From contig JAKIWV010000002.1 in NCBI GenBank assembly GCA_022749815.1, forward strand, positions 194,478 through 258,477: a stretch of DNA of 64,000 nucleotides, given 5' to 3'. The position numbers and the translations under genes were made by a program. The notes beneath the pieces are model-generated. The model did no database searches. It was not told where the DNA came from and saw nothing but the letters and a program-made list of their open reading frames with translations. The DNA comes from Thermoplasmata archaeon. GTDB taxonomy: Archaea; Thermoplasmatota; Thermoplasmata; Lutacidiplasmatales; UBA184. Positions 1,549 to 16,365 of this stretch are shown in pieces; position 1 is the first letter of the stretch; each line of letters begins with the position of its first letter.

Positions 1549-2736
1549 TCAACTCGCGGGTGGCACCGGGGTCACGGCCGCCGGGAGCGACCCGGGGCGA
1601 CGTCGCCCCCGCGTGTAAAAGCCCTCGATCGCCACGAGCGAGACTGCCGTCGCTCCGATCGCGAACGCGAACAGTCCGACCGGACCCGCCAGGCTGAGCG
1701 CGACGCTGCCGCCGAGCGGGCCGAGGCTCCAGAGCGTGGAGTTGATCAGGGAGAAAACGCCGAGGTACTCGGCCCGCCGACCGGAGGGCGCCAGCCGGGC
1801 CACCCACGAGAGCATCGCCGGGCCCAGGAAGGCGAAGCCAAGGTTCCGGAACGCCTGGGCCGGTAGCAGCTCGACCCAATTGGAGGCCACAAGGAACCCC
1901 GCGATGGCGACGATCGAGACACCGGTGCCCCAGAGGAGGCCCTTGATCTCCCCGATGTCGTCGACGATCCGGCCGATCGGGACGGACATCAGCGCCATCG
2001 TCGCGAGTCCCGCGATCGCGACGAGAGCGACCTCGAAGAAATTCGCCCCCAGCGCGGCGGCGTACACCCCGTAGAAGGCCCCGACCGCCCCGGCCCCGAG
2101 AGAGCGGATCGATACCGTCGTGGAGAAGAACAGGAGCTCTTTCATTTCTCCCAAGGGTCGGCGAAGAGGGGTGCCCACGGCTCGATCATCGGGCACCCGG
2201 ATCAACAGGATCCCCAGCGTGCCGGCCTGGACCAACGCCACGAAGTAGAACATGTAGGTGAACCCCAGGTCGAGCACGAGCAGCCCGACGACCACGAATC
2301 CCACAATGCTGCCGGCGGAACTTGCGGCGTTGAGGAGGCCATAGGCGCCCCCCCGTTGCCGATCGCGCGTCACGTCGGCCACGAAGGCGCTCAGCGCGGG
2401 TCCGCCCATCGACAGGATCGTCGTCCCGGCGATGAAGGCGAGTCCGGCGGCCAAGTAGCCCGGAAGGAAAGGGATGGAAAGGTACAACGGGAGCGCCCCC
2501 AATTCAGCGCCGACGAGGAACGGGCGTCGGCGGCCGAGCCGGTCCGACCAACGACCGGCAAGGGGCGCTACGAGGCTTCCCGCGACATACGCGACCGAGG
2601 TGAATGCTAACGCGGTCGGGATCGGAGCGTGGTCCACCAGATGGAGGAAGACCGGAAAGAAGACCAAGTAGACGCCGGATCGGTTGCTCGCCAACAGGGA
2701 GTACAGCGAGAGACCCACGAGGGTCCGGTCGACCAT
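1549..2736 (-). CDS. MFS-family transporter (395 aa)
   Basis: About 12 predicted TM helices. An MFS signature follows TM2 (GRWSDRLGRRRPFLVG). The composition is hydrophobic and Gly/Ala-rich. Confidence 0.7.
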   Translation of the reverse strand: MVDRTLVGLSLYSLLASNRSGVYLVFFPVFLHLVDHAPIPTALAFTSVAYVAGSLVAPLAGRWSDRLGRRRPFLVGAELGALPLYLSIPFLPGYLAAGLAFIAGTTILSMGGPALSAFVADVTRDRQRGGAYGLLNAASSAGSIVGFVVVGLLVLDLGFTYMFYFVALVQAGTLGILLIRVPDDRAVGTPLRRPLGEMKELLFFSTTVSIRSLGAGAVGAFYGVYAAALGANFFEVALVAIAGLATMALMSVPIGRIVDDIGEIKGLLWGTGVSIVAIAGFLVASNWVELLPAQAFRNLGFAFLGPAMLSWVARLAPSGRRAEYLGVFSLINSTLWSLGPLGGSVALSLAGPVGLFAFAIGATAVSLVAIEGFYTRGRRRPGSLPAAVTPVPPAS

Positions 2737-2825
2737 GGCCGCGAGGTGCAGGACCCATATTTAGGCCGCGCGCCGACCTAGACGTATCGGCGAGGTTCTT
2801 TTGAGCCGGGGCCGGTCCCGCCGGC

Positions 2826-3641
2826 GTGACCCCATCGGCGGCGGCTCCCGATCGCTCGTCCGGTCTCTCGCTCCTGCGTCGCAGCGGGACCGTGACCGAG
2901 TTGCTCTTCCTGCACGAATGTGCCACGCGAGAGGTGGCTCAGCTCCGGCCCGTCGCCCAACGCCTCGGCCTCACCGTCCAAGCCGCCTCCCACATCTTCC
3001 GGCAGCTCCGGCGACGGGGATTGGCCGAGGTGCGGAACGACCTGTACCGGCCGACGGTATCTGGAATCGCCTGGCTCCACGCCGCGTTCGGTTCGGTGCG
3101 TGAGGACTTGGACGAACGTCTCCAGCGATTGCGGGTCATTCGCTCGACCCGAGCAGTGGCCCGGGGCCGGGTACCGGCCGACGCCGGTGTCGTTCTGGAG
3201 CTGCGGAGCGGCATGCTCGAAGCGCGCGTAGGCTCGAGAGGCCCCTCCCGGGGGCGGGCGCGCCGGGCGGCGAGGGACGGCGAACTCGTGGAAGTGACCG
3301 ACCTCGAGGGAATCGTCCCGCTCCGTCCGGCCGAGATCCGTATCGTCACGCTGCCCGACTCGGGGGCCCTCGAGAAGTCGATCGTAGCTCAGCTCCGTCG
3401 CCTGCTCCGGGGAGGTTCCGAGGGACTGTTGGCCGCGTCCGGAATCGAAGCCTTCCATTGGCTCCAGCGGGCGTCCTCGCGGCCGGTCCTACGCTATGCC
3501 GTCGCAGCGTCGGCCATCGAGGCCTCCAACGTCGGTGTGCCGACCACCCTCGTAGTGCTCGAGAGCGACCTGCCCTGGCTGCTCGCCCAGTTCGACCAGC
3601 CGCAACCCGTGCCCCTCACAGTACGTCGTCTACGAGGCTAG
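2826..3641 (+). CDS. Putative winged-HTH transcriptional regulator with an uncharacterised C-terminal domain
   Basis: N-terminal HTH-like segment (LRPVAQRLGLTVQAASHIFRQLRRRGLAEV). It lies next to, and divergent from, the ABC import operon. The start codon is uncertain. Confidence 0.4.
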   Translation: MTPSAAAPDRSSGLSLLRRSGTVTELLFLHECATREVAQLRPVAQRLGLTVQAASHIFRQLRRRGLAEVRNDLYRPTVSGIAWLHAAFGSVREDLDERLQRLRVIRSTRAVARGRVPADAGVVLELRSGMLEARVGSRGPSRGRARRAARDGELVEVTDLEGIVPLRPAEIRIVTLPDSGALEKSIVAQLRRLLRGGSEGLLAASGIEAFHWLQRASSRPVLRYAVAASAIEASNVGVPTTLVVLESDLPWLLAQFDQPQPVPLTVRRLRG

Positions 3642-4957
3642 GGCGGGTGCGGCCCCGTGGGGCTCGGCGCCGTCGGTTCCGGCCGACGTCGGGGAAGGTT
3701 CCAGCTCACGGAGAAGGTCGTCAGGGCTCTCCAGCGAGCGAGCGCCGGCCGCCACGAGCCGGTCCCGCACAGCCGCCGCCGTGCCGCCGGTGAAGTCGCG
3801 GTGGGGCCAGCTCGCCATCCCCAGGAGGAAGATGGGCGTGCGTCCAGCGAAGGGCACGAGGTCCTCCAGGTTAGCGAGGTTCCCAGGGCCTACCGGGAAT
3901 GGCGCAACCACGATCCGGTCGGCCTCCACGAGCAGCCGGCGATGCTGCGTCCGGCTTTCGTCGCTCAGGGGGGCAAAGGGAACCTCGGTGGCGACGGGGA
4001 TCCCGAATTCTTCCGCGGTCGTGTGGTCGGTATCGAAGAGGGCCACGACGCCGCTGGTCACGAAGAACCCCCGCTCCCATAGGCGGCGTAGAATGGGGGA
4101 CGCGGATCCCCCACCCCCCACCACGTGCACGCGAAGTGGGGGCGTCCGAAACGGCACTCTCGGTGCCTCCGGCGGCAGGCGGGGAATCAGGTAGGGGACC
4201 CCGCTGCGGGGATCCTCGCGGAGGTCGGCCACGATGCCCCATACCTCCTGCAGCAATACCGGAGAGAGCACGGCCGCCGCCGGTCCATCGGCCACCAGGC
4301 GGCCGTGGTGCAGGACCGCGACGCGGTCTGCAAAACGCGCCGCGAGGTTGAGGTCGTGCAGGGCGGTGACCGCGGCGCTCCCCTCTCGGTGGCAGAGCCG
4401 GCGCACCCGCTCGAGGACCTCGAGCTGGTGCGCCATGTCCAGATGCGCCGTGGGCTCGTCGAGGAGAAGGGCGGGCGTCGATTGGGCGAAGACTCGAGCG
4501 AGACGCAGGCGCTGGCGCTCGCCTCCGCTGATCTCCCAGGTCCGGTCGCCGGCCCGGTCTCCTAGGCCGACCTCGTCCAGGGCCTTCCGGGCCGCGAGGC
4601 GATCGCCCGCCGATTCCCCTCCGAACCGGGGAACGTGGGGGTGACGGCCGAACAGAACGTACTCGAAGAGCGTGACGTTGTCTCCCGGCAACTCCTCCTG
4701 GGGCATCCACGCGAGGTGCCGGGCCCGCGCCGACAGGGACAGCCGTCCTGCTGGAACGCCGGCGAGGAAGATCTGACCTTTGTCGGGCGATACGAGACCA
4801 AGAACCGTCCGGATCAACGTCGTCTTCCCCGAGCCGTTCGGCCCCGCGATCGCCAGGAGCTCTCCCGAGCGCACCGACAGTGAAACGTCCCGAAGGGCGA
4901 CGGTCGTCCCCAGGCGGACGGTCAGGTGCTCCACAGAGATCGCCGCGGGGATCAGGG
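3630..4957 (-). CDS. ABC transporter ATP-binding protein (FepC/BtuD-like, iron-siderophore/cobalamin type) with an unusual ~180-aa C-terminal extension
   Basis: Walker A (GPNGSGKTTL), ABC signature (ISGGERQRLRLA) and Walker B (LLLDEPTAHLD) are present, with a likely GTG start at 4957. The long listed ORF 3630..5837 is a frame artefact on its N-terminal side. Confidence 0.75.
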
Positions 4958-4963
4958 TCGTGG

Positions 4964-6085
4964 TCACGTGCGGGGTCCCTCCGAGGGGGTTCGGCGTCGA
5001 TACAGGAGATACAGAAAGAACGGCGCGCCGGCGAACGCCGTCGGGATCCCCACGGGCAGGACGATCGCCGGCACGACGACCTGGGCCAGGTCCCAGGCCG
5101 AGGCGAGGAACGCGCCGCCGAAGAGGGCGGATAGGGGAAGGACGGCCCGGTAATCGGGCCCCACCAAGCGTCGGACGATGTGCGGCGAGACCAGTCCCAC
5201 GAACCCGATCACCCCGGTAAACGCAACGGCGGTGGCGGTGAGGAGCGTCGTTGTTAGGATCAACTGTCGGGCCACTCGTCGTCCGTCGACCCCCAGACTG
5301 CTCGCCACATCGGGGCCGAGTTGGAGAACGTTGAGCTCGCGGCCTCGAAGCGCCGCGACGCCGCCGGCGATGAGCACGCCACCGAACACGATGCCCGCCC
5401 GGCCCCAGGTCGCACCGGCCATCCCCCCGAGGAGCCAGAAACTTACCTGGAACTCCCCGAGCGGATTCACGAGCAGGAATGCCGCCAACATCGCAGAGAA
5501 GAACGCGCTCAGGGCGACGCCCGTAAGGACCAACGTCTCGACCGCGCGGGCGCGGCCGGCCGCCCAGTACACGATGATCCCAGGGATCAATCCCCCCAGG
5601 AACGCGAAGAGGGGGAGCACAAGGTAAGCGGACGCGAGTCCGATCCGGAAGACGAAGATCAGCGACGCCCCCATCGCAGCCCCGGTGGACAGTCCGAGGA
5701 GGTAGGGGTCCGCGAGCGGGTTCCGGAACACGCCCTGCAACGAGCCGCCGGACAGCCCGAGGGCGGCCCCGGCGGCGAGAGCCAGGACGATCGCGGGCAT
5801 CCTCGCTTGCCAGACGATTTCGGTCCAGATCGCGCATTGGCGGGCCGAGACCGCAACGGAGCTACAAGCCGAACCCGCGAGGGCGCCACCCGTGAGACCG
5901 TGCACGCCGATCGACAGGACGACCCCGGGCGGGATCGGCACCGGTCCGATCAACGGGGAGAGGAGCAGCAACCCCAGGAGGACGCCCGCCAGGAGAAGCG
6001 ATGAAATCCAACGAAGTCGCCGGCGCGGCTGTGTGTTGGCCCCGGGGAGCTTCTCCGTCGTGCCGGGGGTGGGATTCCCCGGCAT
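4964..6085 (-). CDS. FecCD-family ABC permease (BtuC/FepD-like)
   Basis: Polytopic membrane protein with FecCD-type motifs (SGGSLQGVFRNPLADPYLLGLSTGAAMGA). It sits directly upstream of the ATPase. Confidence 0.8.
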   Translation of the reverse strand: MPGNPTPGTTEKLPGANTQPRRRLRWISSLLLAGVLLGLLLLSPLIGPVPIPPGVVLSIGVHGLTGGALAGSACSSVAVSARQCAIWTEIVWQARMPAIVLALAAGAALGLSGGSLQGVFRNPLADPYLLGLSTGAAMGASLIFVFRIGLASAYLVLPLFAFLGGLIPGIIVYWAAGRARAVETLVLTGVALSAFFSAMLAAFLLVNPLGEFQVSFWLLGGMAGATWGRAGIVFGGVLIAGGVAALRGRELNVLQLGPDVASSLGVDGRRVARQLILTTTLLTATAVAFTGVIGFVGLVSPHIVRRLVGPDYRAVLPLSALFGGAFLASAWDLAQVVVPAIVLPVGIPTAFAGAPFFLYLLYRRRTPSEGPRT

Positions 6086-6109
6086 TCGTCGGTCCCAAGA
6101 ACGGGGTGC

Positions 6110-7195
6110 CTACGGCGGGGGCACCAGGGTAGGGTGAACCAAGTGCAGCAGGATGGGAATGGCGAGGATCAGGGAGGGGTCGGCCTCCGTCATCAGGGTG
6201 ATGTCCACGGCGTCCTTGGCCCCGGTCAGCTGGCTCCAATAGGGGGCCCCCCCCGTCGTCGATTGCCATTGCGCCGGCGTCTGATTCGCCACGATCCAAG
6301 GGTCGTTCCAGCTCGTGCCGTAGAGCACGACGTCGGGACTCGCGTTGAGGACCGCCGTCGCGTTCATTTCGAAGTAGACTAGCGGGGACGAGGAGGCGAT
6401 GTTGACCGCCCCCAGCACGTCGATGAGCGACTGGCCGAACGAATCCGGTCCGAAGGTGTAGTACCCTCCGCCGTCGTAATAGTAGGTGACGAGGACGGTG
6501 GGCAGAATCCCCCCGTTGCTCGACAGGTTCGAATCAAATTTCTCCGCCGCGATCAACTGGAGGTTCAGTTGGGTCACGAGCGCATTCGTCGTGGCGCCCA
6601 CGGAGGGGAACAGCTGCCCGACCAATCGCACGTCGTTCACGATGCCTTCCAGGCTGTTCGGTGAGAGAAGGACCACGGGGATGTGGTACGTTACGGAGAG
6701 CTCTTCCACCGCCGCCGCCGAGGTGATGGTGGAGGCTAGAATCAGCTGGGGGCTCCGGTACAGGAGCTCCTCCACGGCGATCGAAGGAAAGTCGGCGATA
6801 CAGAGAGCGGCGGACACGTTCCACAACGCCGACTGATTGGGGGTGTACTCGTTCAGCAGGCCCCCTGAAATGAGTGGGTCGCATCCCACCCCGACGACCC
6901 GGTCGCGGAGGCCCAACCGGTAGACGATGTCGAGAACGCTCGGGGCGAGCACGACGATCCGAGAGGCGTTGGCCTTCGCCACGACCGAGCGGCCCAGATC
7001 GTCGACGACCGTGACGTTGGGTCCGGGGCCGGTCGGGGAGACGGCCTTGGACTCGATCGCCGGCTTGAGCTCGAAATAAACCGCGGTCGCGGCGACCGCA
7101 GTACCGGAGGCGATGAGAAGAGCGACGACCAAGAGCGTGACGGAGATGCGTCGCCCGGCGAGGGAAACCGGTCCAGGGGAGGGATTCAACGACAT
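6110..7195 (-). CDS. ABC substrate-binding protein (BtuF/FepB-like, class III) with an N-terminal membrane anchor; rich in N-x-S/T sequons
   Basis: N-terminal TM segment (ISVTLLVVALLIASGTAVAA). Binding-protein core (RIVVLAPSVLDIVYRLGL..VVGVGCD). It is the first gene of a three-gene import operon. Confidence 0.7.
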   Translation of the reverse strand: MSLNPSPGPVSLAGRRISVTLLVVALLIASGTAVAATAVYFELKPAIESKAVSPTGPGPNVTVVDDLGRSVVAKANASRIVVLAPSVLDIVYRLGLRDRVVGVGCDPLISGGLLNEYTPNQSALWNVSAALCIADFPSIAVEELLYRSPQLILASTITSAAAVEELSVTYHIPVVLLSPNSLEGIVNDVRLVGQLFPSVGATTNALVTQLNLQLIAAEKFDSNLSSNGGILPTVLVTYYYDGGGYYTFGPDSFGQSLIDVLGAVNIASSSPLVYFEMNATAVLNASPDVVLYGTSWNDPWIVANQTPAQWQSTTGGAPYWSQLTGAKDAVDITLMTEADPSLILAIPILLHLVHPTLVPPP

Positions 7196-7360
7196 TGGAA
7201 TCCAGACAAATACACTTTAAGATAAACATTGTGTCGCGATTCGGGCGGGCAACCCCCGAGGAATCCCCCGGCGCGCCCGGGTGGGGGGCGGAGTTTCGCT
7301 GGACACGGGTCGGGGGTTCACGACAAAGAATATCTGCGGGAAGGCTCCGGGACCACGGGA

Positions 7361-7522
7361 GGGAGCATAGGCTAATCTGGCAGACCAGCGGGCTCCAGTC
7401 AGGTCTCCTGCGAGGGGGATCTTTGCATTGGGTCAGCGGAGGGACGCTTCGGCGTACCGATGACGAGTGACTGGAGCGCGCGGAGAGACCCGCATATCGG
7501 GGTTCAAATCCCCGTGCTCCCA
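7361..7522 (+). tRNA. tRNA-Trp (anticodon CCA) with an 89-nt intron (7399..7487) between positions 37 and 38; CCA not encoded
   Basis: The acceptor stem is a perfect 7-bp helix, GGGAGCA/TGCTCCC, with discriminator A. The D-loop (AATCTGGCA) has A14, G18, G19 and A21. The anticodon stem is GCGGG/CCCGC, perfect once the intron is removed. The anticodon loop reads CT-CCA-G followed by A38 from exon 2. The T-arm is CGGGG-TTCAAAT-CCCCG. An AT-rich box, AAAGAATATCT, lies about 25-30 nt upstream. Confidence 0.8.
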
Positions 7523-7823
7523 TTGAAAATGGGCGGCCAGACCCATCTCCGGGGGTCCTTCGGGGCCCCGGAGTTTAGTTTCTCCATAGGCAAACTTCGT
7601 GCGAGAAAGGGGTGCTTTTCGAGCGCAGGAGTCAAGGGAGTGGTGGCCGACGATTCTCTAGTGTCCGGCCGCCAGCTTGTCCGGCTCGTTCTAGAAGAAG
7701 GTCGGGCCTCGGTCGGCTATTGTTGTTTAGCCCTTTGGCCACCATTGTGCCTGCGATTCAATTGCCCCCGCGGTCCGAAGCAGTACCGGACTTTCGACTC
7801 GAGACTATCGAGTTCAGCAGCGG

Positions 7824-8261
7824 TCAACTTGTTTCGCTGACGCATGCATAGACCTTCGCACGCATCCGCATCGTCTGTGGGTCGAAAGTGCCCTCGAGGA
7901 TGCAGACGCTGTTGTTGAGCCACTTGTACCGCTCGTCTTCGGTTTCAAACAGTACCGAGAGAAGCTGCCGGCCCCCCGCCTCGGTAAACACGGTACGGCC
8001 TTGCAGCGAGACCAGAACGAGCGCGTCGTCGTGCGTCTTGATCAAGCCGTGCGCGTCGGGCAGCATCGCGCCATCGCTCCGCCGGCGAGGATGATTTGTC
8101 AGGCGAAGGGAGCCACGAAGCTTGTCACCCGTAACCGTTCCGTCCAGCTCGCCGTACCCTGCCCCGCCTTCATTTCCATAGGGCCTCACTAGGACAAACT
8201 TCTCGCCAAAGGAGGAGTCGCGATACGCCGCGTCAAGCTCACAGATCGGCTCCAGACGCAT
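7824..8261 (-). CDS. DUF3237-family protein (~145 aa)
   Basis: The pattern M.LEP...L.A.Y....G...G..Y.L.G.V.G..LRG......DW....DG...LD is typical of DUF3237. The likely start is MRLEPICELD. Confidence 0.5.
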   Translation of the reverse strand: MRLEPICELDAAYRDSSFGEKFVLVRPYGNEGGAGYGELDGTVTGDKLRGSLRLTNHPRRRSDGAMLPDAHGLIKTHDDALVLVSLQGRTVFTEAGGRQLLSVLFETEDERYKWLNNSVCILEGTFDPQTMRMRAKVYACVSETS

Positions 8262-8493
8262 AGTAGCACCGCCTGCCGGCGGAAAACCAGGCGTGAGTAA
8301 AGAACCTTCCGCACTATCCAAGTTGTCGGCCGTCGTACCCGAGTTCGCCGTCCCGCATAGGCTACTATGTCGGAGATCTACAAGGAGTTCGAAACGGGCC
8401 CCTAAGCGTTTTAAGAGAGCGACTGGCTTTTGCTGAACTTTTCCAAAGGAGGGGATTCTCTAGGGCCCCCCTGGCGTGCTTCAGCTACACCGC

Positions 8494-8523
8494 GAGGGTG
8501 CAATCGCCATTGCACCCTCGAAC
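8494..8523. repeat. Palindromic repeat family, copy P1: GAGGGTGCAAT-CGCC-ATTGCACCCTC + GAAC
   Basis: Perfect 11-nt inverted arms around a 4-nt spacer. It is intergenic, lying between the STAND gene 3' end and the DUF3237 gene. Confidence 0.7.
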
Positions 8524-8962
8524 CCGGTTACCTCACTGGGGCCGGAGAGCGGATCCATTTGCAACGGCTCACCCACCACAGCGGTCAGACATCGCAGGTT
8601 CCGAGGGCAGCCGCTCTTGGGGCGATCGGAGGAGGGGGAGGCATGTCGAAGCGGGCCCTCTGACTCGAGCCACGGTCAGGGTTCCTCCTTTCACCCATCC
8701 TCCCCCGTGGCCATCTCCACCCTCTCGCAGGACGCCATCTGTCTCCCTTGGATAGTTGTCGAGGGAGGAGTTGCGCCGCCTCTAGGGCGCCGCAGCGACG
8801 TAGGGGCCGACTTCGGAGGCTGCCTCCGAGGCCCGCCTCCCCATGGCTCCCTCCGGATCCGGCCCAGCGGGCCTGGCTCGGCGAGGGGCATAGCCGAGAA
8901 GGGGGGCGCCGAGCCCTCTCGGACGAGTGGGAGCAAGGGGCCCTCGCCACCGGGCGTATGAG

Positions 8963-11767
8963 TCAGCCCGAGATTTTGGACAGGAGCGCTCGCGTTTGGT
9001 CCAGGTCCGGGACGGCCGACATTTCCTCGAAGAGCTCCAATGCGTGCGACAGGGCGGCCCGCCCGCCCGGGCCGTCCCCGCCCTCGGCGAGGGCCCGGCC
9101 GACCTCGACCCAGGTGCGCGCCGTCTCGTACGTCCAACCGAGCCGGGACCACGTTCCGATGCATCGGTGCAGGAGGGGCACCGCCACGCTCGCTCGTCCC
9201 TCACGGACGAGGCACTCCGCTTTAGCGCGGTCGGAAAACGCGCGTATGTAGTCGGAATCAAAACGGTCGGCGAATTCCTGGAGAGGGCCCAGCAATGCCT
9301 GGGCCTGTTCGAGGTGTCCCTGTCGCACGGCCACCGACACGAAGAGCGCGAGGGCTTCGGGGTACAGCTCGGCGTACCAGCCCTCCGGGCCAGTCGCTAG
9401 GCAACAATCCCGCGCCGCACCGAACGCCTGCTCGGCGGCGGCGAACTCGTCCCGGAGGAGGAAGTGTCGACCCAGGTAGAGGTGGATCAGCGCCTCGAGG
9501 TACCACCTCGGTTCGGTCCGCATGAGGGCGAGGGCGGTCTCCAGCGACGGGCGGGCGCTCTCAGTCTGACCCAGCAGAGCCCCGGCCGCTCCATGACCGA
9601 ACAGCGCCTGGACCGGTTCCGGGACGCCGTGCACCGCCGCGAACCGGCGCAGTTCGTCGGCGCGCAGCACGACCTCGGTAAAGTGGCCCTGGCGCAAGAG
9701 ACCCAGCGGCTCGGCATACCCCCGCCACCAAGCTTCTATGTCGGCGGTACCGGTTCGTCGCGCGAGCTCGATCAGCTCGCCGGAGGCGTCCAAGGCGCGA
9801 GGGAGGTCCCCCTCCACGTGGTAGATCGCCGCCGCCTGGTAGGTCAGGGCCTCGATAACTAGGTCGGTGAGCCCGTGGTCCTCGGCGATCGCCTTCGCCT
9901 CCCGGACGAGTCGGAACGAGTCCCGGATCCGGCCTACAGGGAGCGACCGAGCCGAGATGAGCCGGGTGAGGACCTGACCGTGACGGTCCCCTTGGGCTTC
10001 CGCCAGCCGCAACGCCCGCTCCGCGTCTTCGCGGGCTGGTCCGACCCGACCCAGGACGTAGAGGAAGTTCGACCGCGCCACGAGCACCTGACCGAGGAGC
10101 GAGTCCTCCGGGCTTTCCCCCAGAAGCGCGGTCGCGCGCCGGAAGAGCGGCTCGGCGCGGTCCGGCGTGATATCGGCGTTGGTGCCCATCGCCGCGATGC
10201 ATCCGACGGCCGCGGCGAGGTCCCCGAGGCGTTGGAAGCCGTCGGCGGCTTCTTCGAAGAGGTCGAGACCCTTGCCCGCGTCCCCGACCCGGATCATCTG
10301 TTCTGCGAGGCGCGACTGGATGCGCCAGCGTTGCGAGCCCGCCGGTTCCCGGGAAAGCAGGTCGAGTGCCGCCCGGTAATGCTCGATTGCGTCGCGCCGC
10401 GCATAGATCTGGGCCGCGCGGTCCCCCGCCTTCATGCAGTACTCGAGGGCCCGAGCCGTGTCCCCGGATCGCAGGAAATGGTAGGCGAGGATCCCCGAGC
10501 GGTCGGACGAATCGCCCGGCGGACTCGATTCGAGGGCGAGGCCGATCCGGTGGTGGATCTCGCGCCGTCGCGCCAGAGGAACTTCGGCGTACAATGCTTC
10601 CTGGATCAGCGGGTGGGCGAACGTTCCGACGTCGTCTCCGGCCGGGCCCCGCACCACCTGGACGAGTCGCGCGCCTGCCGCGGCTTCGATCGCATCGAGG
10701 ACATCTTTCTCGCCACGGCCGCTAATCTGCGGGAGCAGCCGGACGTGGAACTCCGGCCCCTCCGCTGCGGCCGCAGCCAGCACCGTCCTGTGGTCCGTGC
10801 CGAGGCGTCCCAGACGTTGTTCGAGCACACTCTGGACGCTCGAGGGGACGCGGAGGGTTGGGACCGATCGTCCTTCCCAGCCATCCGCCGTGGGAAAGAT
10901 TGCCCCCGACTCGATCAGCGATTGGACGATCTCCTCGACGAAGAACGGGTTTCCGCCGGACTTCTCGTTGACGAGGCGGACGAACTCGGGGAGAGGGACG
11001 GCCTGGCGGAGCAGCTGGCCCACCAGGGCCGCCACCTCCGACCGGTCTAGTCGCGCGAGGTCGACCCGTGTGATGAGCTTGCTCCGCCCCAGCGTGAGCA
11101 CGAGCTCCTTCAGGGGCGGGCTCTGGTCAAGGTGGGTGTCCCGTGCAGATACCGCGATGAAGAGGGGGTTCGTCCGGGTCGCCGGTGCGATCGCCTGTAG
11201 GAGCTCTACCGACGATGCATCGGCCAGCGCAAGGTCGTCGATCGTGATCAACGCGCTCCCGGACCCGGCGATGGCGATGAACAGGTCGCACAGCTCACGC
11301 ACGAAGGAGTGGCCGTCCAATGGGTGCGCGCGCCAGTCCGGACTCGGGGTAAGCCAGACTTTGTCCGTAAGCTCCGGCAATAGCGCGAACACCGCATCCG
11401 CACAGGGGACCACCGTGGAACGCACCCTCCCCCGGGGTTGCTCTCTGACGAACTGCCGGAGGAGGTCGATCCACGGGGCATACGGCACGCCCCGCTCGAT
11501 TCCCTCGCACTGGGCCGACAGTTGGAGCATCCCTACGGTCGTGGCGACCCGGTGGAACTCGTCGATCAATCGAGTCTTGCCGATGCCGGACTCCCCGGTG
11601 AGGAGGAGCAACCGGCCCGATTCTTTGGTCGGACCGTCGACGAACGACTGCAGGGCCCCGAGCTCCGCCTTCCGGCCCACGAATGCGACCGTGGCGGCCC
11701 CAAGGCCCCCGGGCAGGCGTGGGTACAGAAGGCCCGGGTCTCGAGGGGCGACATCCGGGTCGCTCAC
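8963..11767 (-). CDS. STAND-class P-loop NTPase with C-terminal TPR-like helical repeats (934 aa); no effector or HTH domain recognised
   Basis: Walker A at ~aa 55 (LLLTGESGIGKTRL), Walker B-like (LITIDDLALAD), and a long alpha-helical repeat region beyond it. This is the AfsR/MalT/Avs-like NTPase class. Confidence 0.7.
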   Translation of the reverse strand: MSDPDVAPRDPGLLYPRLPGGLGAATVAFVGRKAELGALQSFVDGPTKESGRLLLLTGESGIGKTRLIDEFHRVATTVGMLQLSAQCEGIERGVPYAPWIDLLRQFVREQPRGRVRSTVVPCADAVFALLPELTDKVWLTPSPDWRAHPLDGHSFVRELCDLFIAIAGSGSALITIDDLALADASSVELLQAIAPATRTNPLFIAVSARDTHLDQSPPLKELVLTLGRSKLITRVDLARLDRSEVAALVGQLLRQAVPLPEFVRLVNEKSGGNPFFVEEIVQSLIESGAIFPTADGWEGRSVPTLRVPSSVQSVLEQRLGRLGTDHRTVLAAAAAEGPEFHVRLLPQISGRGEKDVLDAIEAAAGARLVQVVRGPAGDDVGTFAHPLIQEALYAEVPLARRREIHHRIGLALESSPPGDSSDRSGILAYHFLRSGDTARALEYCMKAGDRAAQIYARRDAIEHYRAALDLLSREPAGSQRWRIQSRLAEQMIRVGDAGKGLDLFEEAADGFQRLGDLAAAVGCIAAMGTNADITPDRAEPLFRRATALLGESPEDSLLGQVLVARSNFLYVLGRVGPAREDAERALRLAEAQGDRHGQVLTRLISARSLPVGRIRDSFRLVREAKAIAEDHGLTDLVIEALTYQAAAIYHVEGDLPRALDASGELIELARRTGTADIEAWWRGYAEPLGLLRQGHFTEVVLRADELRRFAAVHGVPEPVQALFGHGAAGALLGQTESARPSLETALALMRTEPRWYLEALIHLYLGRHFLLRDEFAAAEQAFGAARDCCLATGPEGWYAELYPEALALFVSVAVRQGHLEQAQALLGPLQEFADRFDSDYIRAFSDRAKAECLVREGRASVAVPLLHRCIGTWSRLGWTYETARTWVEVGRALAEGGDGPGGRAALSHALELFEEMSAVPDLDQTRALLSKISG

Positions 11768-11843: not shown

Positions 11844-12470
11844 TCATTCGATCTCCTTCCGCGAGCCGTCGCTCGCTACGAACGCCCGCCAGCCGTCCGT
11901 GGAGTCGAGCTCGAGCTCGCCCTCGAACCGTCCGCTCCTCGTTCCGCGGTCGGTGGCGAACTCGACCAGGAGCTTGAACGGCCGCGTCGAGTGGTCGCTG
12001 GCCTCGAGGAGCCACTTCATCAGCTCTTCGTGGCGCGACCAATCGACCTCGACGAAGTGGCCCGGGAGCAGAGAGGGCTCGTAGGCCACCTCCTTCCCCG
12101 CCAAACGGGCCCGTAGCTCCTGGACCGGCTCGGGGGAGCAGTTCCTGAGGAATACGCGGTGGGAGGCCCGCAGTCGCGTCGGACGCGCCACATAGGCGGG
12201 CTCGAGTTCGTGGCGCTGCCGCTCCCCCACGGGCCAGACGTGCCGATAGAGCGAGGTCGGGCGGACCTTTGGGGGCGACCGGTACCCCTTCCGCCAGCGT
12301 TGGACTTGCCGCAGTCGGGCAGCAAAATTGGGAGTTTCGTTCTTCCAGTTGCCGTAGATAACCGGGGCGAGCGCCTCTAGCTCCCGCTCGACCTGGCGGG
12401 CCGACCACTCGGAATGCGCCCGCTCGACGTTTTGGGTGAGCTGCTCGAGCTCCTTCCGAGGTCGGGTCAT
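11844..12470 (-). CDS. Hypothetical protein (208 aa) immediately upstream of, and co-oriented with, the STAND NTPase
   Basis: The reading frame has balanced composition (MTRPRKELEQL...). The overlapping listed ORF 11764..12603 is Arg/Gly-rich and likely a frame artefact. No family was recognised. Confidence 0.4.
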   Translation of the reverse strand: MTRPRKELEQLTQNVERAHSEWSARQVERELEALAPVIYGNWKNETPNFAARLRQVQRWRKGYRSPPKVRPTSLYRHVWPVGERQRHELEPAYVARPTRLRASHRVFLRNCSPEPVQELRARLAGKEVAYEPSLLPGHFVEVDWSRHEELMKWLLEASDHSTRPFKLLVEFATDRGTRSGRFEGELELDSTDGWRAFVASDGSRKEIE

Positions 12471-12718
12471 GCCGCGGCCCGCGACATCTGTCGGACCCCC
12501 GTGAAGGGGCGAACGGCGCCTGGGTCGATAAAGATGCGCGAATCCCCGACAACCGGGGCGGCACTTCAGCGTACAGAATCCCCACGGGTGAGGATGGCGG
12601 CACCGCGATTCAGCCCCGGGGCATCGGGAACCGTCCGGAGGGGGCCGGCCAGGCCCGAGGGGCCTCTCTCCAAGGGGTGCCACAGTGCCACTTTCTCCCC
12701 TCCAGGACGAACCGGCTG

Positions 12719-12973
12719 ATGACCGCCTCCTTAGAAATTGCGTTCTCGGAAGCGGTCGAACGGTGGGAGACGCATCGCAAGGCATGCGCGCGGTGCGCGA
12801 CGAGCCAGCGGGGGGAGTGCGAGACGGGTGACCATTTGTTGGCCGCCGCGGCCGAAGCTCGAGGACGCTGGTTGCTCCGCCTCACACGGTCCGTGGGCGT
12901 AAGGATCGCGGTCCGTCCTCCTGCCCTTCCGACGAGCAAGCCCGAGTCCCGGCCAAGGAAGAGGACCAGGTAG
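12719..12973 (+). CDS. Small zf-HC2-like protein, paralog 1 (ERWETHRKACARC)
   Basis: Shares the motif E-W-[DE]-x-H-x3-C-x2-C-x7-C-x2-G with two downstream paralogs. The start and the C-terminal boundary are uncertain. Confidence 0.35.
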   Translation: MTASLEIAFSEAVERWETHRKACARCATSQRGECETGDHLLAAAAEARGRWLLRLTRSVGVRIAVRPPALPTSKPESRPRKRTR

Positions 12974-13261
12974 CAGTGGGCCGGGCGCGTTCTGCATGGG
13001 AGGAGGGGGAACGGGACCGTTCGCCCCGAACCGATCTCTGGGGGGATCGCTTCGTACGGTGAGTCGCGTTTCGCTCAGCCATCATTCCACCCGCTCTCGG
13101 CCGCCCCCGTGCACACGGAGTACGAGGTTCGTCGTTGTCAGATCCACAACTGCGCCGCGACAAGTGTCGAGGGTCCGTGGGGCGGCACCTCGCGAGGCCG
13201 GCCGAGGAAGCCGACGGGGGAGCGCGACACGCGAGCCGAAACCTCGGACATATGGAGAAGC

Positions 13262-13594
13262 ATGAAGTTCCCAAGCGGCACAGACGAGCATAGCTCCCAG
13301 CCCTGCCCAAACGACTTGCCGAAGTACCGTCGATGCGAGAACCGACTACACGGGACCCTGGCCGAATGGGACCGTCACATCGCATTGTGCGGTGAATGTC
13401 TGTCCTACGGCGTACACCTTTGCGCTATGGGCCAGAGCTTATCCCTTGAGGTCGGACGTGCACGAGCACGCTTGGACATGGTCGCAGCCAAGCTCACGCG
13501 GACTCGGCCCCGCCCGGAGTCGGTGGTCCCCGAACTCCCGATTCGAAGCCCACCCTCTCCTTCCCTGTCCGCGGTGGTTTCGGGGACTCCGTGA
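13262..13594 (+). CDS. Small zf-HC2-like protein, paralog 2 (AEWDRHIALCGECLSYGVHLCAMG)
   Basis: It has the H-x3-C-x2-C zinc-binding motif with an upstream Cys. It is paralogous to 15958..16365 and 12719..12973. Confidence 0.45.
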   Translation: MKFPSGTDEHSSQPCPNDLPKYRRCENRLHGTLAEWDRHIALCGECLSYGVHLCAMGQSLSLEVGRARARLDMVAAKLTRTRPRPESVVPELPIRSPPSPSLSAVVSGTP

Positions 13595-13818
13595 CGCCGA
13601 AATGGTTTCACGGGGGGTCGGAGGCGGCACCCTATCTTCGTGGTGGTGGTAACGTCGGTCCTCCTGCCGGCCTCCGCAGCCGCCGGCACACCTCCCACGT
13701 TGGGGAGGGAGTCCAGAGTCTTCACTCACGTTCGCCTTACGATGAAACCGAACCTGGCCCCGAGCGTGACCCTCGGAGGTGCAAACGACTTCTTCCCTTG
13801 AAAGAACAGTCCGTGCCC

Positions 13819-15588
13819 ATGGAAACGGGGCGAGCGGCCCGGCTCCCATGCTGGAATCCCCCCTCAATCCCGGGACGTTCGTCACGGCCTATTAACCTCC
13901 CGAGGTCGCCGTCCGGAAAACGACCCGGACGGTCGCGGACTTGGCCCCAACAGCGCAGCCAGATCGCTTCCATTGCGGTCGTGACTCTCGCTCTCATCGT
14001 AAGTTTCGGCATGTTGCCTTGGGCCCGGGCGCCCGCCCCACTCTCCTCCACTAGTGGAACACCTGGAATCCACACTCTAGATTTGAGCATCCCCATGGTC
14101 AACACGTCGTTTGCTGGCTATGTGCTGCTCAACCCCAACCATGGCTCGGTGCAGGCGATTTCCGATACGTTCACGCAACCGAGAGGGACTTGCAGCTCGG
14201 GCGAGTATGTTGTGAACTCAAACGCGTCCTATCCAAATGACCAGAATGTGTGGATCGGGCCGGGCCTTTACGACGGCACTCTCGACTTTTCAAATTTCGG
14301 GGCCTATCAAATGGGAACCGAAACGCTCTGCCAGTCGCTTACTCAGGACCCCGTCTACATTCCGTTCTACTACTCGATAGCGATCCGGCCGTCGGACCCG
14401 CCGAACCCCGACAACGTCATGCACGCCTTCACGGGGCTCGTGGTGAGTGCCGGCGACTCGATCAAGTCCACGATACTTTCGTCGTCCGGAACTCTGACAT
14501 TCACGTTTACGGACCTGACAAGCAATCGGACCGTAACGGCTGAGGTCAGTGCATCGGAGTTCAAGCCAAACGGAGCGTTCTGCATCCTGAACGTCTTTGG
14601 AAATCTGGCAAGATTCTCCAGGTTCACCCAGTCCTGCGAGCCCAACGTCGGTGGCGAGACGGCCGGTATTGGTGCCTTTACGACTCCGAACATCGCCCTT
14701 CGGGCAGTCATGGTCAACACCACTGGTGCGATCCAAGCCGCCGTGTCCCCACTATCTCCCGACGGAGCGACATTTTCGACCCGCTTTGTTTTCTCATCCC
14801 CCCTCGGCCCACTGTTCCCGCCCGGTCAAGATACGTTGTTTCGCGCTTCCCACGCCGCCGGTTATCTTCTCCTGAACAGCTACCACGGATCCGTGGTCTC
14901 GGCCTCCGACTCGTACGTTCAGCCTAAGGCCTCGTGCTTCGCAGGAGAGGCGTACGAAAACGCCACCGGGCACTATCCGGGCGACCAGGACGCTTTCGTG
15001 GGGGCAGGGCTGTACGCGGGCAGCACCGACTCCTCCAGCTACAGATTCTATCAGGTCGGCACTGAAGCGTTGTGTCAGCTCTTCTTCCAGAATCCGGTCT
15101 ACATCCCGTACTACCTCGTGACGGTCGTGACTCCGACCGACCCCACCGGGGACTTCTCCATCGTCGTCTTACCGAATTTGACTGTGAACCCCGGCGACGT
15201 CATTCATTCTGCGGTGAAAGTATCGGGAGCAACTTCAGGTGACGACCCGCAGAATAACAGGGTGACGTTCATCCTGGCCGACCTGACGACAGGCATGACC
15301 GCCCGAGTGACCATTTCCGCCGCTGGGTTCGCCCCGAACGGCGCGGCCTGTGTCATGGAACCTATCTTCCTCACCCCGAAGTTTACGCCAATCGCACAGT
15401 CCTGTAAGGCAACTGTCGACGGGGTGAACGATGGGTTTGGAGACTTCGCCCCTCCGAACCTTCTACTCCGGTTCGACCTCCGCAGCAACCTCAACTCGAC
15501 GGTGGTGCAGGCGCGCACTTCCGGTTTTATCGCCGACGGCGGGGACTTTTCCATCACCTGGATCACTTCGGAGCCGCTTGGGTTCTAG
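13819..15588 (+). CDS. Secreted or membrane-anchored protein with two tandem ~240-aa domains resembling the peptidase G1 (eqolisin/A4) concanavalin-like fold
   Basis: N-terminal TM/signal segment (IASIAVVTLALIVSFGML). There is an internal duplication: GYVLLNPNHGSV...YQMGTE...CILNV versus GYLLLNSYHGSV...YQVGTE...CVMEP. The QxGTE and I-V-E-like positions resemble the G1 catalytic Gln/Glu dyad. Many N-glycosylation sequons are present. Confidence 0.45.
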   Translation: METGRAARLPCWNPPSIPGRSSRPINLPRSPSGKRPGRSRTWPQQRSQIASIAVVTLALIVSFGMLPWARAPAPLSSTSGTPGIHTLDLSIPMVNTSFAGYVLLNPNHGSVQAISDTFTQPRGTCSSGEYVVNSNASYPNDQNVWIGPGLYDGTLDFSNFGAYQMGTETLCQSLTQDPVYIPFYYSIAIRPSDPPNPDNVMHAFTGLVVSAGDSIKSTILSSSGTLTFTFTDLTSNRTVTAEVSASEFKPNGAFCILNVFGNLARFSRFTQSCEPNVGGETAGIGAFTTPNIALRAVMVNTTGAIQAAVSPLSPDGATFSTRFVFSSPLGPLFPPGQDTLFRASHAAGYLLLNSYHGSVVSASDSYVQPKASCFAGEAYENATGHYPGDQDAFVGAGLYAGSTDSSSYRFYQVGTEALCQLFFQNPVYIPYYLVTVVTPTDPTGDFSIVVLPNLTVNPGDVIHSAVKVSGATSGDDPQNNRVTFILADLTTGMTARVTISAAGFAPNGAACVMEPIFLTPKFTPIAQSCKATVDGVNDGFGDFAPPNLLLRFDLRSNLNSTVVQARTSGFIADGGDFSITWITSEPLGF

Positions 15589-15674
15589 ATTCTATCCCTT
15601 TCACGCCCCTGGCCGCCTAAATTCTCAGGCACTGCCCGGGCCCCACGCGGGACCCAATCCCTCTGCATCAGGCA

Positions 15675-15715
15675 GGGGTGGCTGCAGCCACTATTGCACC
15701 CTCGAACGCCGCAAC
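15675..15715. repeat. Palindromic repeat family, copy P2 (GGGGTG-GCTGCAGCC-ACTATTGCACCCTCGAACGCCGCAAC)
   Basis: It shares the right half, ATTGCACCCTCGAAC, with P1, and carries an inserted GCTGCAGC palindrome. It is intergenic. Confidence 0.55.
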
Positions 15716-15957
15716 CAGCCTGGAACCGGGAAGAGCATCCAATCGCAACGAGATGGGTGGCCTGAGGGCAGAGTCGATTCCCTAGCGGACCGGCGGCTGG
15801 ACGGTCCACTCGAGGTCCGCAGAGGGGGTCCGAAGGCCCGGCGCGACATCTGTCGCGTCATTCACAGACGTGTACTTTCGCCTTCCTCGATGGAGCGCTC
15901 TCCAGGCGCGACAGTCCGACCGAAACATCGGCACATAGACTAACCGAGGGAACCGCG

Positions 15958-16365
15958 ATGACGACACAACTATCGACCGCCCTCTCGGCCATCCAAGAGC
16001 ACAACGCCCGCGACCAGTCTGGAAGCTTCAAACCGGGACGAGCCAACGTGGCGCAAGCCCGTTTTGAACGCGTCCTTTGCGAGTGGGACTCCCACATAGC
16101 CCGGTGCACAGAGTGTCTGTCTTACGGCGAACACCTGTGCATGTTGGGTGGTTTTCTTGTTGAAGATGTCGGGAGCGCGCGAGATCGTCTGGTCGGTCTG
16201 GCGGTAGAGCTCCCCCCCCCGAGCGCGGATGTATCGCAGCTTACCGGAGCACGAGCTCTTGGGGCGATCGGATACATGCTCTATGGGCCCCGAGTCTATG
16301 CCGAGAACCGAACTACCCGTGCGCCCTTATCGGATTGCGACGCTTCGAAGCCCAGTCCCAGTTGA
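15958..16365 (+). CDS. Small zf-HC2-like protein, paralog 3 (CEWDSHIARCTECLSYGEHLCMLGG)
   Basis: It has the H-x3-C-x2-C motif and is clearly paralogous to 13262..13594. Confidence 0.45.
   Translation: MTTQLSTALSAIQEHNARDQSGSFKPGRANVAQARFERVLCEWDSHIARCTECLSYGEHLCMLGGFLVEDVGSARDRLVGLAVELPPPSADVSQLTGARALGAIGYMLYGPRVYAENRTTRAPLSDCDASKPSPS

Follow-up and report, generated by a model that had tools for sequence, protein, structure and literature searches.

An undescribed family of small His-Cys3 proteins and its divergently encoded partner in Thermoplasmata archaea: a candidate regulatory module linked to exported-protein genes

Background

Among described systems, the small zinc-finger regulators of archaea (the C(P)XCG micro-proteins and Brz), which carry other motifs, and the regulatory logic of bacterial sigma/anti-sigma pairs come close to the genes described here. 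These genes lie in a 64,000-nucleotide stretch of DNA from a Thermoplasmata archaeon (assembly GCA_022749815.1, contig JAKIWV010000002.1, positions 194,478 to 258,477 of the forward strand), referred to below as the window. They comprise three small open reading frames (ORFs), ORF1 to ORF3, whose products carry the motif H-x3-C-x2-C-x7-C and are called HCCC proteins here, and a divergent gene encoding a conserved partner of 208 amino acids (aa), p208. Our tentative reading, which we regard as plausible rather than probable, casts the HCCC protein as an adaptor that binds metal and works within a circuit through which p208 controls exported proteins.

An anti-sigma domain is a helical bundle that wraps regions 2 and 4 of a sigma factor. 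The zinc-containing anti-sigma (ZAS) proteins are defined by an HxxxCxxC motif and by being encoded next to genes for extracytoplasmic function (ECF, group IV) sigma factors; in RsrA, the zinc ligands are Cys11, His37, Cys41 and Cys44, with Cys11 located 26 residues before His37 (PMC3961337). In archaea, zinc-finger micro-proteins with two C(P)XCG motifs have been described in Haloferax (PMC11241148), and Brz of Halobacterium is a small zinc-finger protein that acts as a transcription regulator (PMC2253796). For uncultured Thermoplasmata of soil and peat, essentially nothing has been established about gene regulation, and a search of the literature found no account of an archaeal ZAS-like family.

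Like the ZAS proteins RsrA, RslA and RsiW, the HCCC proteins are small and helical, carry H-x3-C-x2-C at the end or start of a helix, probably form a His-Cys3 zinc site, and are encoded beside a putative transcription regulator with repeated operator-like sites nearby. They differ in that the fourth ligand, which in ZAS proteins lies about 25-30 residues upstream of the His, is an invariant Cys 7 residues downstream of the CxxC, and in that the predicted fold is a two-helix hairpin, without profile similarity to the four-helix anti-sigma domain. Furthermore, the partner gene is transcribed divergently and not together with the HCCC gene, a sigma factor is missing, and the protein has no membrane-spanning or extracytoplasmic part. 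With the C(P)XCG micro-proteins and Brz, the HCCC proteins share small size, archaeal origin and a single predicted zinc site, and some of the described micro-proteins and their like regulate neighbouring genes. However, the C(P)XCG proteins have two knuckles that form a zinc-ribbon-like Cys4 site, whereas the HCCC ligands lie between two long helices; the CPXCG pair is absent from the consensus of 63 HCCC sequences.

The HCCC proteins form a family distinct from ZAS domains

The three plus-strand genes are found where a preliminary description of this DNA had placed them: ORF1 at 12719..12973 (84 aa), ORF2 at 13262..13594 (110 aa) and ORF3 at 15958..16365 (135 aa). The signature attributed to them, W-[DE]-x-H-x3-C-x2-C-x7-C-x2-G preceded by Glu, is present in all three as far as the motif itself is concerned; the residue before the Trp is Glu in ORF2 and ORF3 but Arg in ORF1 (VERWETH). 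ORF2 and ORF3 are clear paralogues (48% identity across 67 aa, E 4e-17). ORF1 is more distant, with E 4e-6 against ORF3 and no significant match to ORF2 alone, and represents a divergent basic subfamily with a net charge of +8 and a conserved tail (AAAEARGRWLLR...VRIAV). A profile of 63 family sequences nevertheless scores all three, at E values from 6e-14 (ORF1) to 5e-23.

When a profile of the three sequences was compared with 1.84 billion representative proteins, 68 matches were obtained at E<1e-3, nearly all of them 70-140 aa long. Four long matches were set aside; P0015 was rejected as a family member because its sequence is that of eukaryote-type repeated zinc fingers, while P0014, P0021 and P0062 were excluded solely on their length and repeated partial matches. 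In the 63 aligned sequences, H46, C50, C53 and C61 (ORF3 numbering) are invariant and W43, D44, L54, G57, G64 and R75 are near-invariant. The core consensus, W-D-x-H-x3-C-x2-C-L-x2-G-x3-C-x2-G between two amphipathic helices in a protein of 70-140 aa that lacks a signal peptide, is found in ORF1, ORF2 and ORF3. With regard to phyletic distribution, all members with a named organism come from metagenome-assembled genomes (MAGs) of Thermoplasmata archaea, and the gene neighbourhoods are archaeal, with genes for eIF2-gamma, ribosomal protein S6e, thermopsin, archaeal pilins and TFIIB. With a degenerate DNA version of the motif, 14 metagenome contigs were retrieved; all carry true members and none is viral.

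No significant family was found for the HCCC proteins in Pfam, NCBIfam, PHROGs or PADLOC. Weak matches to PCYCGC, RH_dom and DUF7563 (the last in one of the 63 members, at E 0.11, with no sequence relation) were dismissed as motif noise. A viral or defence-island origin was likewise rejected, PHROGs and PADLOC having yielded no significant family for either the HCCC proteins or p208. On the basis of these searches, the HCCC proteins are a family so far undescribed and seen to date in Thermoplasmata only. Two distant matches, P0047 (177 aa) and P0061 (187 aa), contain the motif twice in the form AW-[EL]-x-H-[RK]-x-G-C-P-x-C-x8-10-C and may represent a related two-domain family.

Whether the ORFs might be open by chance in GC-rich DNA, or be remnants of pseudogenes, a condition that the preliminary description had named, was addressed by comparison among relatives. 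In its favour, the codon-position GC signal is weak in the window, including the GC content at third codon positions (GC3) of ORF2 and ORF3. Moreover, ORF3 as a single sequence found no match, not even itself, in a word-indexed collection of 5.8 billion proteins in which the adjacent peptidase is present, which suggests that the three genes are uncalled in public annotation. Scans of genome contigs with the alignment of the three paralogues and with the peptidase found nothing, so that no GTDB representative genome is close. However, the 68 homologues have invariant ligands, in-frame GC3 is strong (0.87-0.93) in family genes of higher-GC relatives, and upstream elements and Shine-Dalgarno (SD)-like sequences are conserved. 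The ratio of nonsynonymous to synonymous substitution rates (dN/dS) is below 0.5 throughout: 0.37-0.47 for ORF2 against its orthologues in loci L023 (80% core identity) and L024, and 0.43 for ORF1, which has orthologues in P0022, P0031 and L024; further ORF2 orthologues are P0012 and P0013. Spurious or decayed ORFs are thus already refuted by the comparative data, and the probability that we leave to them is negligible.

The AlphaFold model of ORF3 has a pLDDT above 94 over residues 28-84 and predicts a two-helix hairpin consisting of a helix (28-49), a turn with a short helix (51-56) and a second helix (62-84). The core common to the family measures about 55 residues, and its two long helices are predicted to run antiparallel. 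The four invariant ligands, which span 16 residues, are placed at the hairpin tip, where they most likely coordinate a single metal ion of structural or sensory function, zinc being the default guess. This arrangement presumably resembles the inter-helical HCCC zinc sites of the TAZ type, in which a His at a helix end joins Cys residues of the turn in holding two helices together. Foldseek searches against PDB and BFVD returned just generic coiled-coil or helical hairpins (E>=0.8), with no DNA-binding fold and no TAZ or RING structure. The family has no membrane-spanning segment, as no 19-residue window exceeds a Kyte-Doolittle value of 1.23, and its median net charge is -2, most members being acidic or neutral. 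Judged from these sequence properties, HCCC proteins are soluble and cytoplasmic; a soluble, mostly acidic family argues for protein binding over DNA binding.

The proposal that these proteins belong to the ZAS type proper (zf-HC2), with anti-sigma-like domains that switch a partner in response to redox state or zinc, draws on the string H-x3-C-x2-C-L, which both have in common, and on the resemblance of the module to sigma/anti-sigma operon logic, with a small metal-binding protein, a putative regulator and autoregulation-like sites. In a profile search of PDB sequences, RslA (3hug_B) appeared at E 0.45, ranking below RBX1 at E 0.1, and neither match is significant. Beyond the H-x3-C-x2-C string, nothing was found to be shared. 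None of the 63 members matches PF13490 at E<=1, and hhalign gave a probability of 2.3% over 15 columns for RsrA, the sequence of which was verified against PDB 5frf, and 2.0% over 14 columns for RsiW. No upstream Cys or His is conserved, with at most 6 of 63 sequences having one at any position within the 40 residues before the motif. The AlphaFold model is a hairpin and not an anti-sigma fold, and no anti-sigma structure occurs among the best Foldseek matches displayed. No sigma gene is expected in an archaeon, and among the products of the neighbouring genes (p208, a STAND-type ATPase, the G1 peptidase and a DUF1801 protein) none matches a sigma-70 family in Pfam. Together with the absence of a membrane segment, these results leave the ZAS assignment very improbable, and the sequence comparisons indicate that the HCCC family arose independently of the bacterial ZAS domains. 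The H-x3-C-x2-C string is therefore not diagnostic of ZAS domains. As for RBX1 (RING-H2), the local string WD...C..C......LC.E is in common with the HCCC proteins; a relation was rejected, since the match extends over 50 residues without significance, RBX1 lacks the His and the spacing differs.

A conserved divergent partner and its palindromic element

The gene for p208 (11844..12470, minus strand) is divergent from the small HCCC genes. Of the 16 loci that were informative in a hidden Markov model (HMM) scan, 10 have p208 head-to-head with a family gene, namely the window (with ORF1), L003, L009, L010, L012, L013, L014, L020, L023 and L024. It is absent from the six others that have enough flank (L004, L006, L007/8, L015, L016 and L021), and five further contigs end too early to be scored. 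The homologues are 40-81% identical across loci; those in L003 and L009, for example, have about 208 codons and the same head-to-head orientation, with 40-42% identity and E ~1e-50. A dN/dS of 0.10-0.17 indicates strong purifying selection. The protein has no significant match in Pfam, NCBIfam, PHROGs, PADLOC or PDB sequences. Its N-terminal 65 residues are predicted to form three helices and are followed by a basic stretch, with a net charge of +5 to +10 over residues 46-100; p208 is a candidate DNA-binding regulator.

Residues 1-70 of p208 (12261-12470, minus strand) can be aligned with the HMG box of human MLL3 (PDB 2yuk) such that the W, Y and W core residues coincide, without significance. 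To our knowledge, an HMG-like fold would be unusual in an archaeon. Homology among p208 proteins begins at the Met encoded at 12470, and the longer ATG at 12785 is an overcall, as is the corresponding minus-strand ORF of 313 codons (11844-12785). Long plus-strand frames antisense to p208 (12159-12719) are conserved merely through the conservation of p208. One JGI gene call, P0031 (272 aa), represents this antisense frame fused to an ORF1-like gene.

The region between p208 and the HCCC gene carries a 14-bp palindrome with the consensus GCGACA-NN-TGTCGC, about 10-25 nt from the p208 start across loci. The window has three copies: palindrome 1 (12481..12494, GCGACATCTGTCGG), 11 nt upstream of the p208 start codon; palindrome 2 (13157..13170, GCGACAAGTGTCGA), 105 nt upstream of ORF2; and palindrome 3 (15843..15856, GCGACATCTGTCGC), which is perfect and lies 115 nt upstream of ORF3. 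With up to one mismatch, these 3 matches in 64 kb compare with 0.35 expected, and 3 were reached in none of 100 shuffles. A composite pattern that includes a downstream half-site, CGAC-N4-GTCG-N52-58-CGACA, occurs exactly 3 times in the window, against 0.13 expected and again with 3 reached in none of 100 shuffles, and each copy is located directly upstream of one of ORF1, ORF2 and ORF3.

The distance from the palindrome to a promoter-proximal block is 65-69 bp in 14 instances. Toward the HCCC gene, this block consists of a GCGACA half-site, CCGAAA(A), GTCGCAC, an A/T-rich yATAGTA, usually GAGG, and the start codon; CCGAAA and yATAGTA are both candidates for the TATA box. The ORF3 block (15908..15957, plus strand) contains GCGACA, CCGAAAC, CACATAGACTAA and GAGG followed by the ATG, and the ORF2 block (13224..13261, plus strand) contains a GCGACA half-site, CCGAAAC and the A/T-rich CATATGG before the ATG. 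The ORF2-type block is found with the same 67-bp spacing in L023 and L024. The ORF1 block (12546..12593, plus strand), in which a CCGACA half-site follows 65 bp after the palindrome, is degenerate compared to the other copies. On the minus strand, between palindrome 1 and the ORF1-side block, an A/T-rich GATAAAG (12527..12533) is a candidate TATA-like box of p208. It is kept as CGATAAAG, CGATATAAG or CGATAGT at the same place in L023, L024, L014, L015, L012 and L020; in the copies before ORF2 and ORF3, which are not adjacent to p208, it has decayed to GAGGAAG or GATGGAG. This pattern of retention beside p208 and decay elsewhere fits a p208 promoter.

One copy of the element is found at each p208-type locus elsewhere, and some loci have additional copies at other genes. 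L023 has a second copy (5542-5613) upstream of a gene for a 697-aa fn3 surface protein. L002 has p208, an orthologous peptidase and three element copies (1958-2027, 8467-8538 and 9394-9463), located upstream of a DUF3224 gene and two secreted-protein genes (186-191 aa), with no HCCC gene within 21 kb. Since the element stands beside p208 in this locus devoid of HCCC genes, p208 and not the HCCC protein seems to be tied to the operator. From the distribution of its copies, the element accompanies p208 and behaves like an operator common to a small regulon. By the position of the element in L002, the start annotated for the 186-aa gene should be placed about 32 codons further downstream.

This organization is like that of described divergent, autoregulated transcription-factor modules with palindromic operators, in that the 14-bp palindrome lies beside the start codon of the regulator gene, further half-sites bracket the target promoter and the element precedes several genes in a regulon-like manner. 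Unlike in those modules, p208 as the putative regulator falls into none of the described DNA-binding families, and its DNA binding is a prediction. Alternatively, the HCCC protein itself could bind GCGACA-NN-TGTCGC as a zinc-stabilised, dimeric helical autoregulator, with p208 in another role such as ligand sensing. This would agree with the presence of the element before all three window genes and before every p208-type family gene, with L015, in which the element is kept upstream of the HCCC gene though p208 is gone, with the strongly basic character of ORF1-type proteins and with the existence of small archaeal zinc-finger regulators such as Brz (PMC2253796). However, most family members are acidic or neutral, no DNA-binding fold emerged from the fold search, L002 keeps its elements and p208 without any HCCC gene, and the subfamily that lacks p208 lacks the element as well. 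We therefore consider DNA binding by the HCCC protein itself unlikely, though well within reason.

Translational overlap with exported-protein genes

As had been described, ORF2 and ORF3 bracket a gene for an exported protein, here placed at 13591..15588 on the plus strand and predicted to be membrane-anchored with tandem G1 domains. Its likely GTG start codon at 13591 overlaps the ORF2 stop codon (GTGA). The identification of the product as a tandem eqolisin-like protein is borne out: Peptidase_A4 (PF01828) matches over two stretches at E 1.2e-12, with a score of 48.2 bits against a gathering cut-off of 22.3, and the two halves are 39% identical (E 1e-55).

A 4-nt overlap (ATGA or GTGA) between the stop codon of the HCCC gene and the start of the next gene is found in at least 10 loci (the window with ORF2, L009, L011, L012, L013, L019, L020, L022, L023 and L024), and in each of these the downstream product begins with a signal peptide or membrane anchor. 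These products are G1-like in the window, L023 and L024; mutually homologous PKD/Ig-like proteins of 124-175 aa in L009, L011, L012, L013, L019 and L022; and a 73-aa ORF in L020. At the 3' ends of the family genes in the window and in loci L009-L024, a G-rich SD-like run lies 6-9 nt before the overlapping ATG or GTG and coincides with the codons for a conserved C-terminal peptide, ...PG(V)PA, or ...G(T/A/I)P in the ORF2 type (...SGTP; window 13573-13594). The conservation of this peptide is probably a constraint at the nucleotide level, and a conserved C-terminal peptide motif can therefore be the shadow of a ribosome-binding site for an overlapping downstream gene.

A second overlap is found at the 5' end of family genes with long leaders. 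In eight of eight such loci (L009, at 7968-8060, L011, L012, L013, L014, L015, L017 and L020), an upstream open reading frame (uORF) of 26-35 codons follows GAGG and closes with a stop codon that shares 4 nt (ATGA or GTGA) with the HCCC start. Close to their end, the uORFs carry an SD-like GGAGG, and their coding GC pattern is weak; length and position are conserved among them, whereas the peptides are not. ORF2, ORF3 and the family genes of L023, L003 and L010 have longer N-termini in place of a uORF.

The preliminary description had linked the HCCC genes to G1 peptidases. A general link of this kind did not hold, since the loci of orthologous peptidases, L001 and L002, are without a family gene and most of the coupled partners elsewhere are the small PKD/Ig-like secreted proteins. 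These observations also bear on the possibility that the HCCC protein has no regulatory role and serves in the cytoplasm as a dedicated escort, chaperone or assembly factor of the downstream exported protein, p208 being just the regulator of the operon. The stop/start overlap with genes for signal-peptide or anchor proteins, together with the SD-like G-run in the C-terminal codons, would fit such a role, overlaps of this type being typical of proteins needed in fixed stoichiometry. However, the coupled partners are unrelated to one another (a tandem G1 peptidase in some loci, small PKD/Ig-like proteins in others), the peptidases of L001 and L002 do without an HCCC protein, and several family genes have no coupled exported partner (ORF1, ORF3, L003, L014/15, where CDC48 follows, and L017/18, where DeoC follows). 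A dedicated escort function is accordingly viewed as an alternative with a modest chance of being correct.

A proposed circuit and its alternatives

The descriptive parts of this account, that is, the family, its ligands, the gene module, the DNA element and the distinction from ZAS domains, are held with very high confidence. For the function of the module, the adaptor reading would run as follows. A p208 dimer would bind the palindromic sites and regulate the p208 gene itself, the HCCC operons and further genes for exported proteins. Through translational coupling, the HCCC protein would be made in fixed proportion to the exported protein; as a small metal-dependent protein-binding adaptor, it would act as an antagonist or co-factor of p208. 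This would close a feedback loop that links transcription to metal status or to the output of envelope proteins. In this arrangement, the module would consist of p208, the palindrome, the promoter block 65-69 bp further on, an optional uORF, the HCCC gene and an overlapping exported-protein gene. We infer metal binding, DNA binding by p208, the interaction between HCCC protein and p208, and the direction of regulation. The earlier suggestion that the small proteins belong to a regulatory module with a partner is thus retained in part, being consistent with the divergent p208, the palindrome before each gene and the coupling to exported genes, whereas a ZAS-like mode of action is not.

Several points weigh against the adaptor reading. 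Metal binding is predicted from the sequence and the structural model. The best matches of p208 are non-significant (HTH_32, E 0.09; MLL3 HMG box, E 0.065, over the N-terminal 65 residues), and its single-sequence AlphaFold model, with a pLDDT of 42, is too poor for use. Six family loci, as well as ORF2 and ORF3 of the window, are without an adjacent p208, and the basic ORF1 subfamily could bind nucleic acid. Furthermore, a second subfamily (L004, L006, L016 and L025) has no palindrome and instead has two canonical CTATAT boxes. The existence of a subfamily without p208 and palindrome indicates that the family is older than its association with p208, and that its basic activity cannot need an adjacent p208. 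Finally, the gene order by itself would be equally compatible with an antagonist, a co-factor, a chaperone and a simple target gene.

A more specific version of the adaptor reading would be that the module is a lineage-specific Thermoplasmata signalling system, in which unrelated parts do the job of a bacterial ECF sigma/anti-sigma pair. Here, p208 would be a new type of regulator, possibly HMG-box-like, and the HCCC protein its metal- or redox-sensitive antagonist. Translational coupling would tie the supply of antagonist to the synthesis of exported protein, and envelope or metal stress would release p208 onto the GCGACA-NN-TGTCGC regulon. We regard this version as rather unlikely.

It is also conceivable that the HCCC protein is a sensor, buffer or metallochaperone for zinc or another metal, with p208 as a metal-responsive regulator. 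The invariant His-Cys3 site is in line with such a role, as are metal-transporter genes at three loci. A gene for a cation diffusion facilitator (CDF; Cation_efflux and ZT_dimer domains, zinc-transporter type) directly follows p208 in L014 (5350-6234, minus strand) and L020 (1829-2809, plus strand), and an Nramp gene (1821-3044, minus strand) is located directly upstream of the family gene in L016. However, L014 and L020 are related, their CDF products being 60% identical, so that these amount to two or three observations overall; no metal transporter is found near the three window genes, and most neighbours encode exported proteins or unrelated housekeeping functions. A primary role in metal handling therefore appears quite improbable.

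The comparative data alone define a testable unit that consists of two undescribed families, the HCCC hairpin and p208, neither of which is in Pfam or NCBIfam, and a defined 14-bp putative operator with fixed spacing to a promoter block. The candidate target genes mostly encode exported proteins, acid peptidases included. If p208 indeed binds the element and the HCCC protein modulates p208, the module would bring with it a new family of regulators in archaea and a new kind of small co-regulator that binds metal. Such a module is not startling for a specialist, yet it is an unusually complete and directly testable regulatory unit of an uncultured archaeal lineage.

History of the copies

The clustering of the three genes had been attributed to recent local duplication. 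The divergence of the copies speaks against this, as ORF2 and ORF3 show a dS of 1.8 and 44% aa identity, and the ORF1-ORF2 arrangement is already present in L024, a relative with 71% DNA identity along a collinear stretch of 1857 bp (p208, an ORF1-like gene, an ORF2-like gene and the exported gene). The nearest relative found for ORF3 is ORF2, with 53% identity over the core. The high dS and the lack of a closer relative of ORF3 indicate that the triplication is old, ORF3 being an old paralogue of ORF2, and that each copy took its control cassette along.

L023 is also collinear with the window (STAND ATPase, p208, ORF2-like and G1-like genes) but is without the approximately 650 bp (12492-13139) that carry ORF1. 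This comparison suggests that the ORF1 segment was gained or lost by recombination between cassette copies. In the window, the segment is bounded by two palindrome copies (12481 and 13157).

The second subfamily, which comprises members ending in ...VTAxLP and P0043, is encoded between S6e/eIF2-gamma genes and a gene for an Arc_PepC_II (prepilin-peptidase-like) membrane protein (L004 8404-9765; L025 8001-9414; L026). This setting recurs in two distinct lineages, one represented by L004 and the other by L025/26.

Neighbouring genes and minor features

A gene for a STAND-type ATPase (8963..11767, minus strand; 934 aa) lies 77 nt downstream of p208. Its product has an AAA_16 domain (Pfam E 4.6e-20) and TPR repeats, and no DNA-binding domain was detected in it. 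The order of STAND gene and p208 is the same in L023 (STAND gene at 5767-8571, minus strand). In L002, a STAND-type gene (2636-5824) is near p208 but not adjacent to it, and the other p208 loci are without one. The STAND ATPase and p208 could together form a split large ATP-binding regulator. No tRNA or Rfam features were found in the 64-kb window.

A possible uORF of 41 codons precedes ORF1 (12594..12719, plus strand); it follows GAGG, and its stop codon overlaps the ORF1 start by 1 nt (TGATG). As it is not conserved in L024, this uORF is doubtful.

Three start codons can be considered for the tandem G1 protein: the GTG at 13591, the start at 13819 given in the preliminary description, and that at 14095 used by NCBI, which drops the anchor. 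The GTG is favoured by L023 and L024, where the downstream gene has the same 4-nt overlap with the ORF2-like gene and its product begins with VTRK... or MTRY... followed by a signal peptide. The first residues of the window protein, VT(P/R)K, are common to L023. With this start, a hydrophobic anchor is located at about residue 124 of the long form, and the cytoplasmic N-terminal region is about 120 residues longer than in the relatives. The annotated part of the protein is 100% identical to the NCBI entry 'G1 family endopeptidase [Thermoplasmata archaeon]'. By phmmer, the protein has no detectable similarity to any solved G1 structure in PDB, and its tandem domain duplication and membrane anchor set it apart from G1 peptidases. 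In domain 1 (about 14680-14700, ...NGAFCILNVFGN...), the sequence ILNVF is found where the orthologues P0003/L002 have ILEPF and domain 2 has VMEP. If this position is that of the catalytic Glu in the Gln/Glu dyad of G1 peptidases, domain 1 may be inactive.

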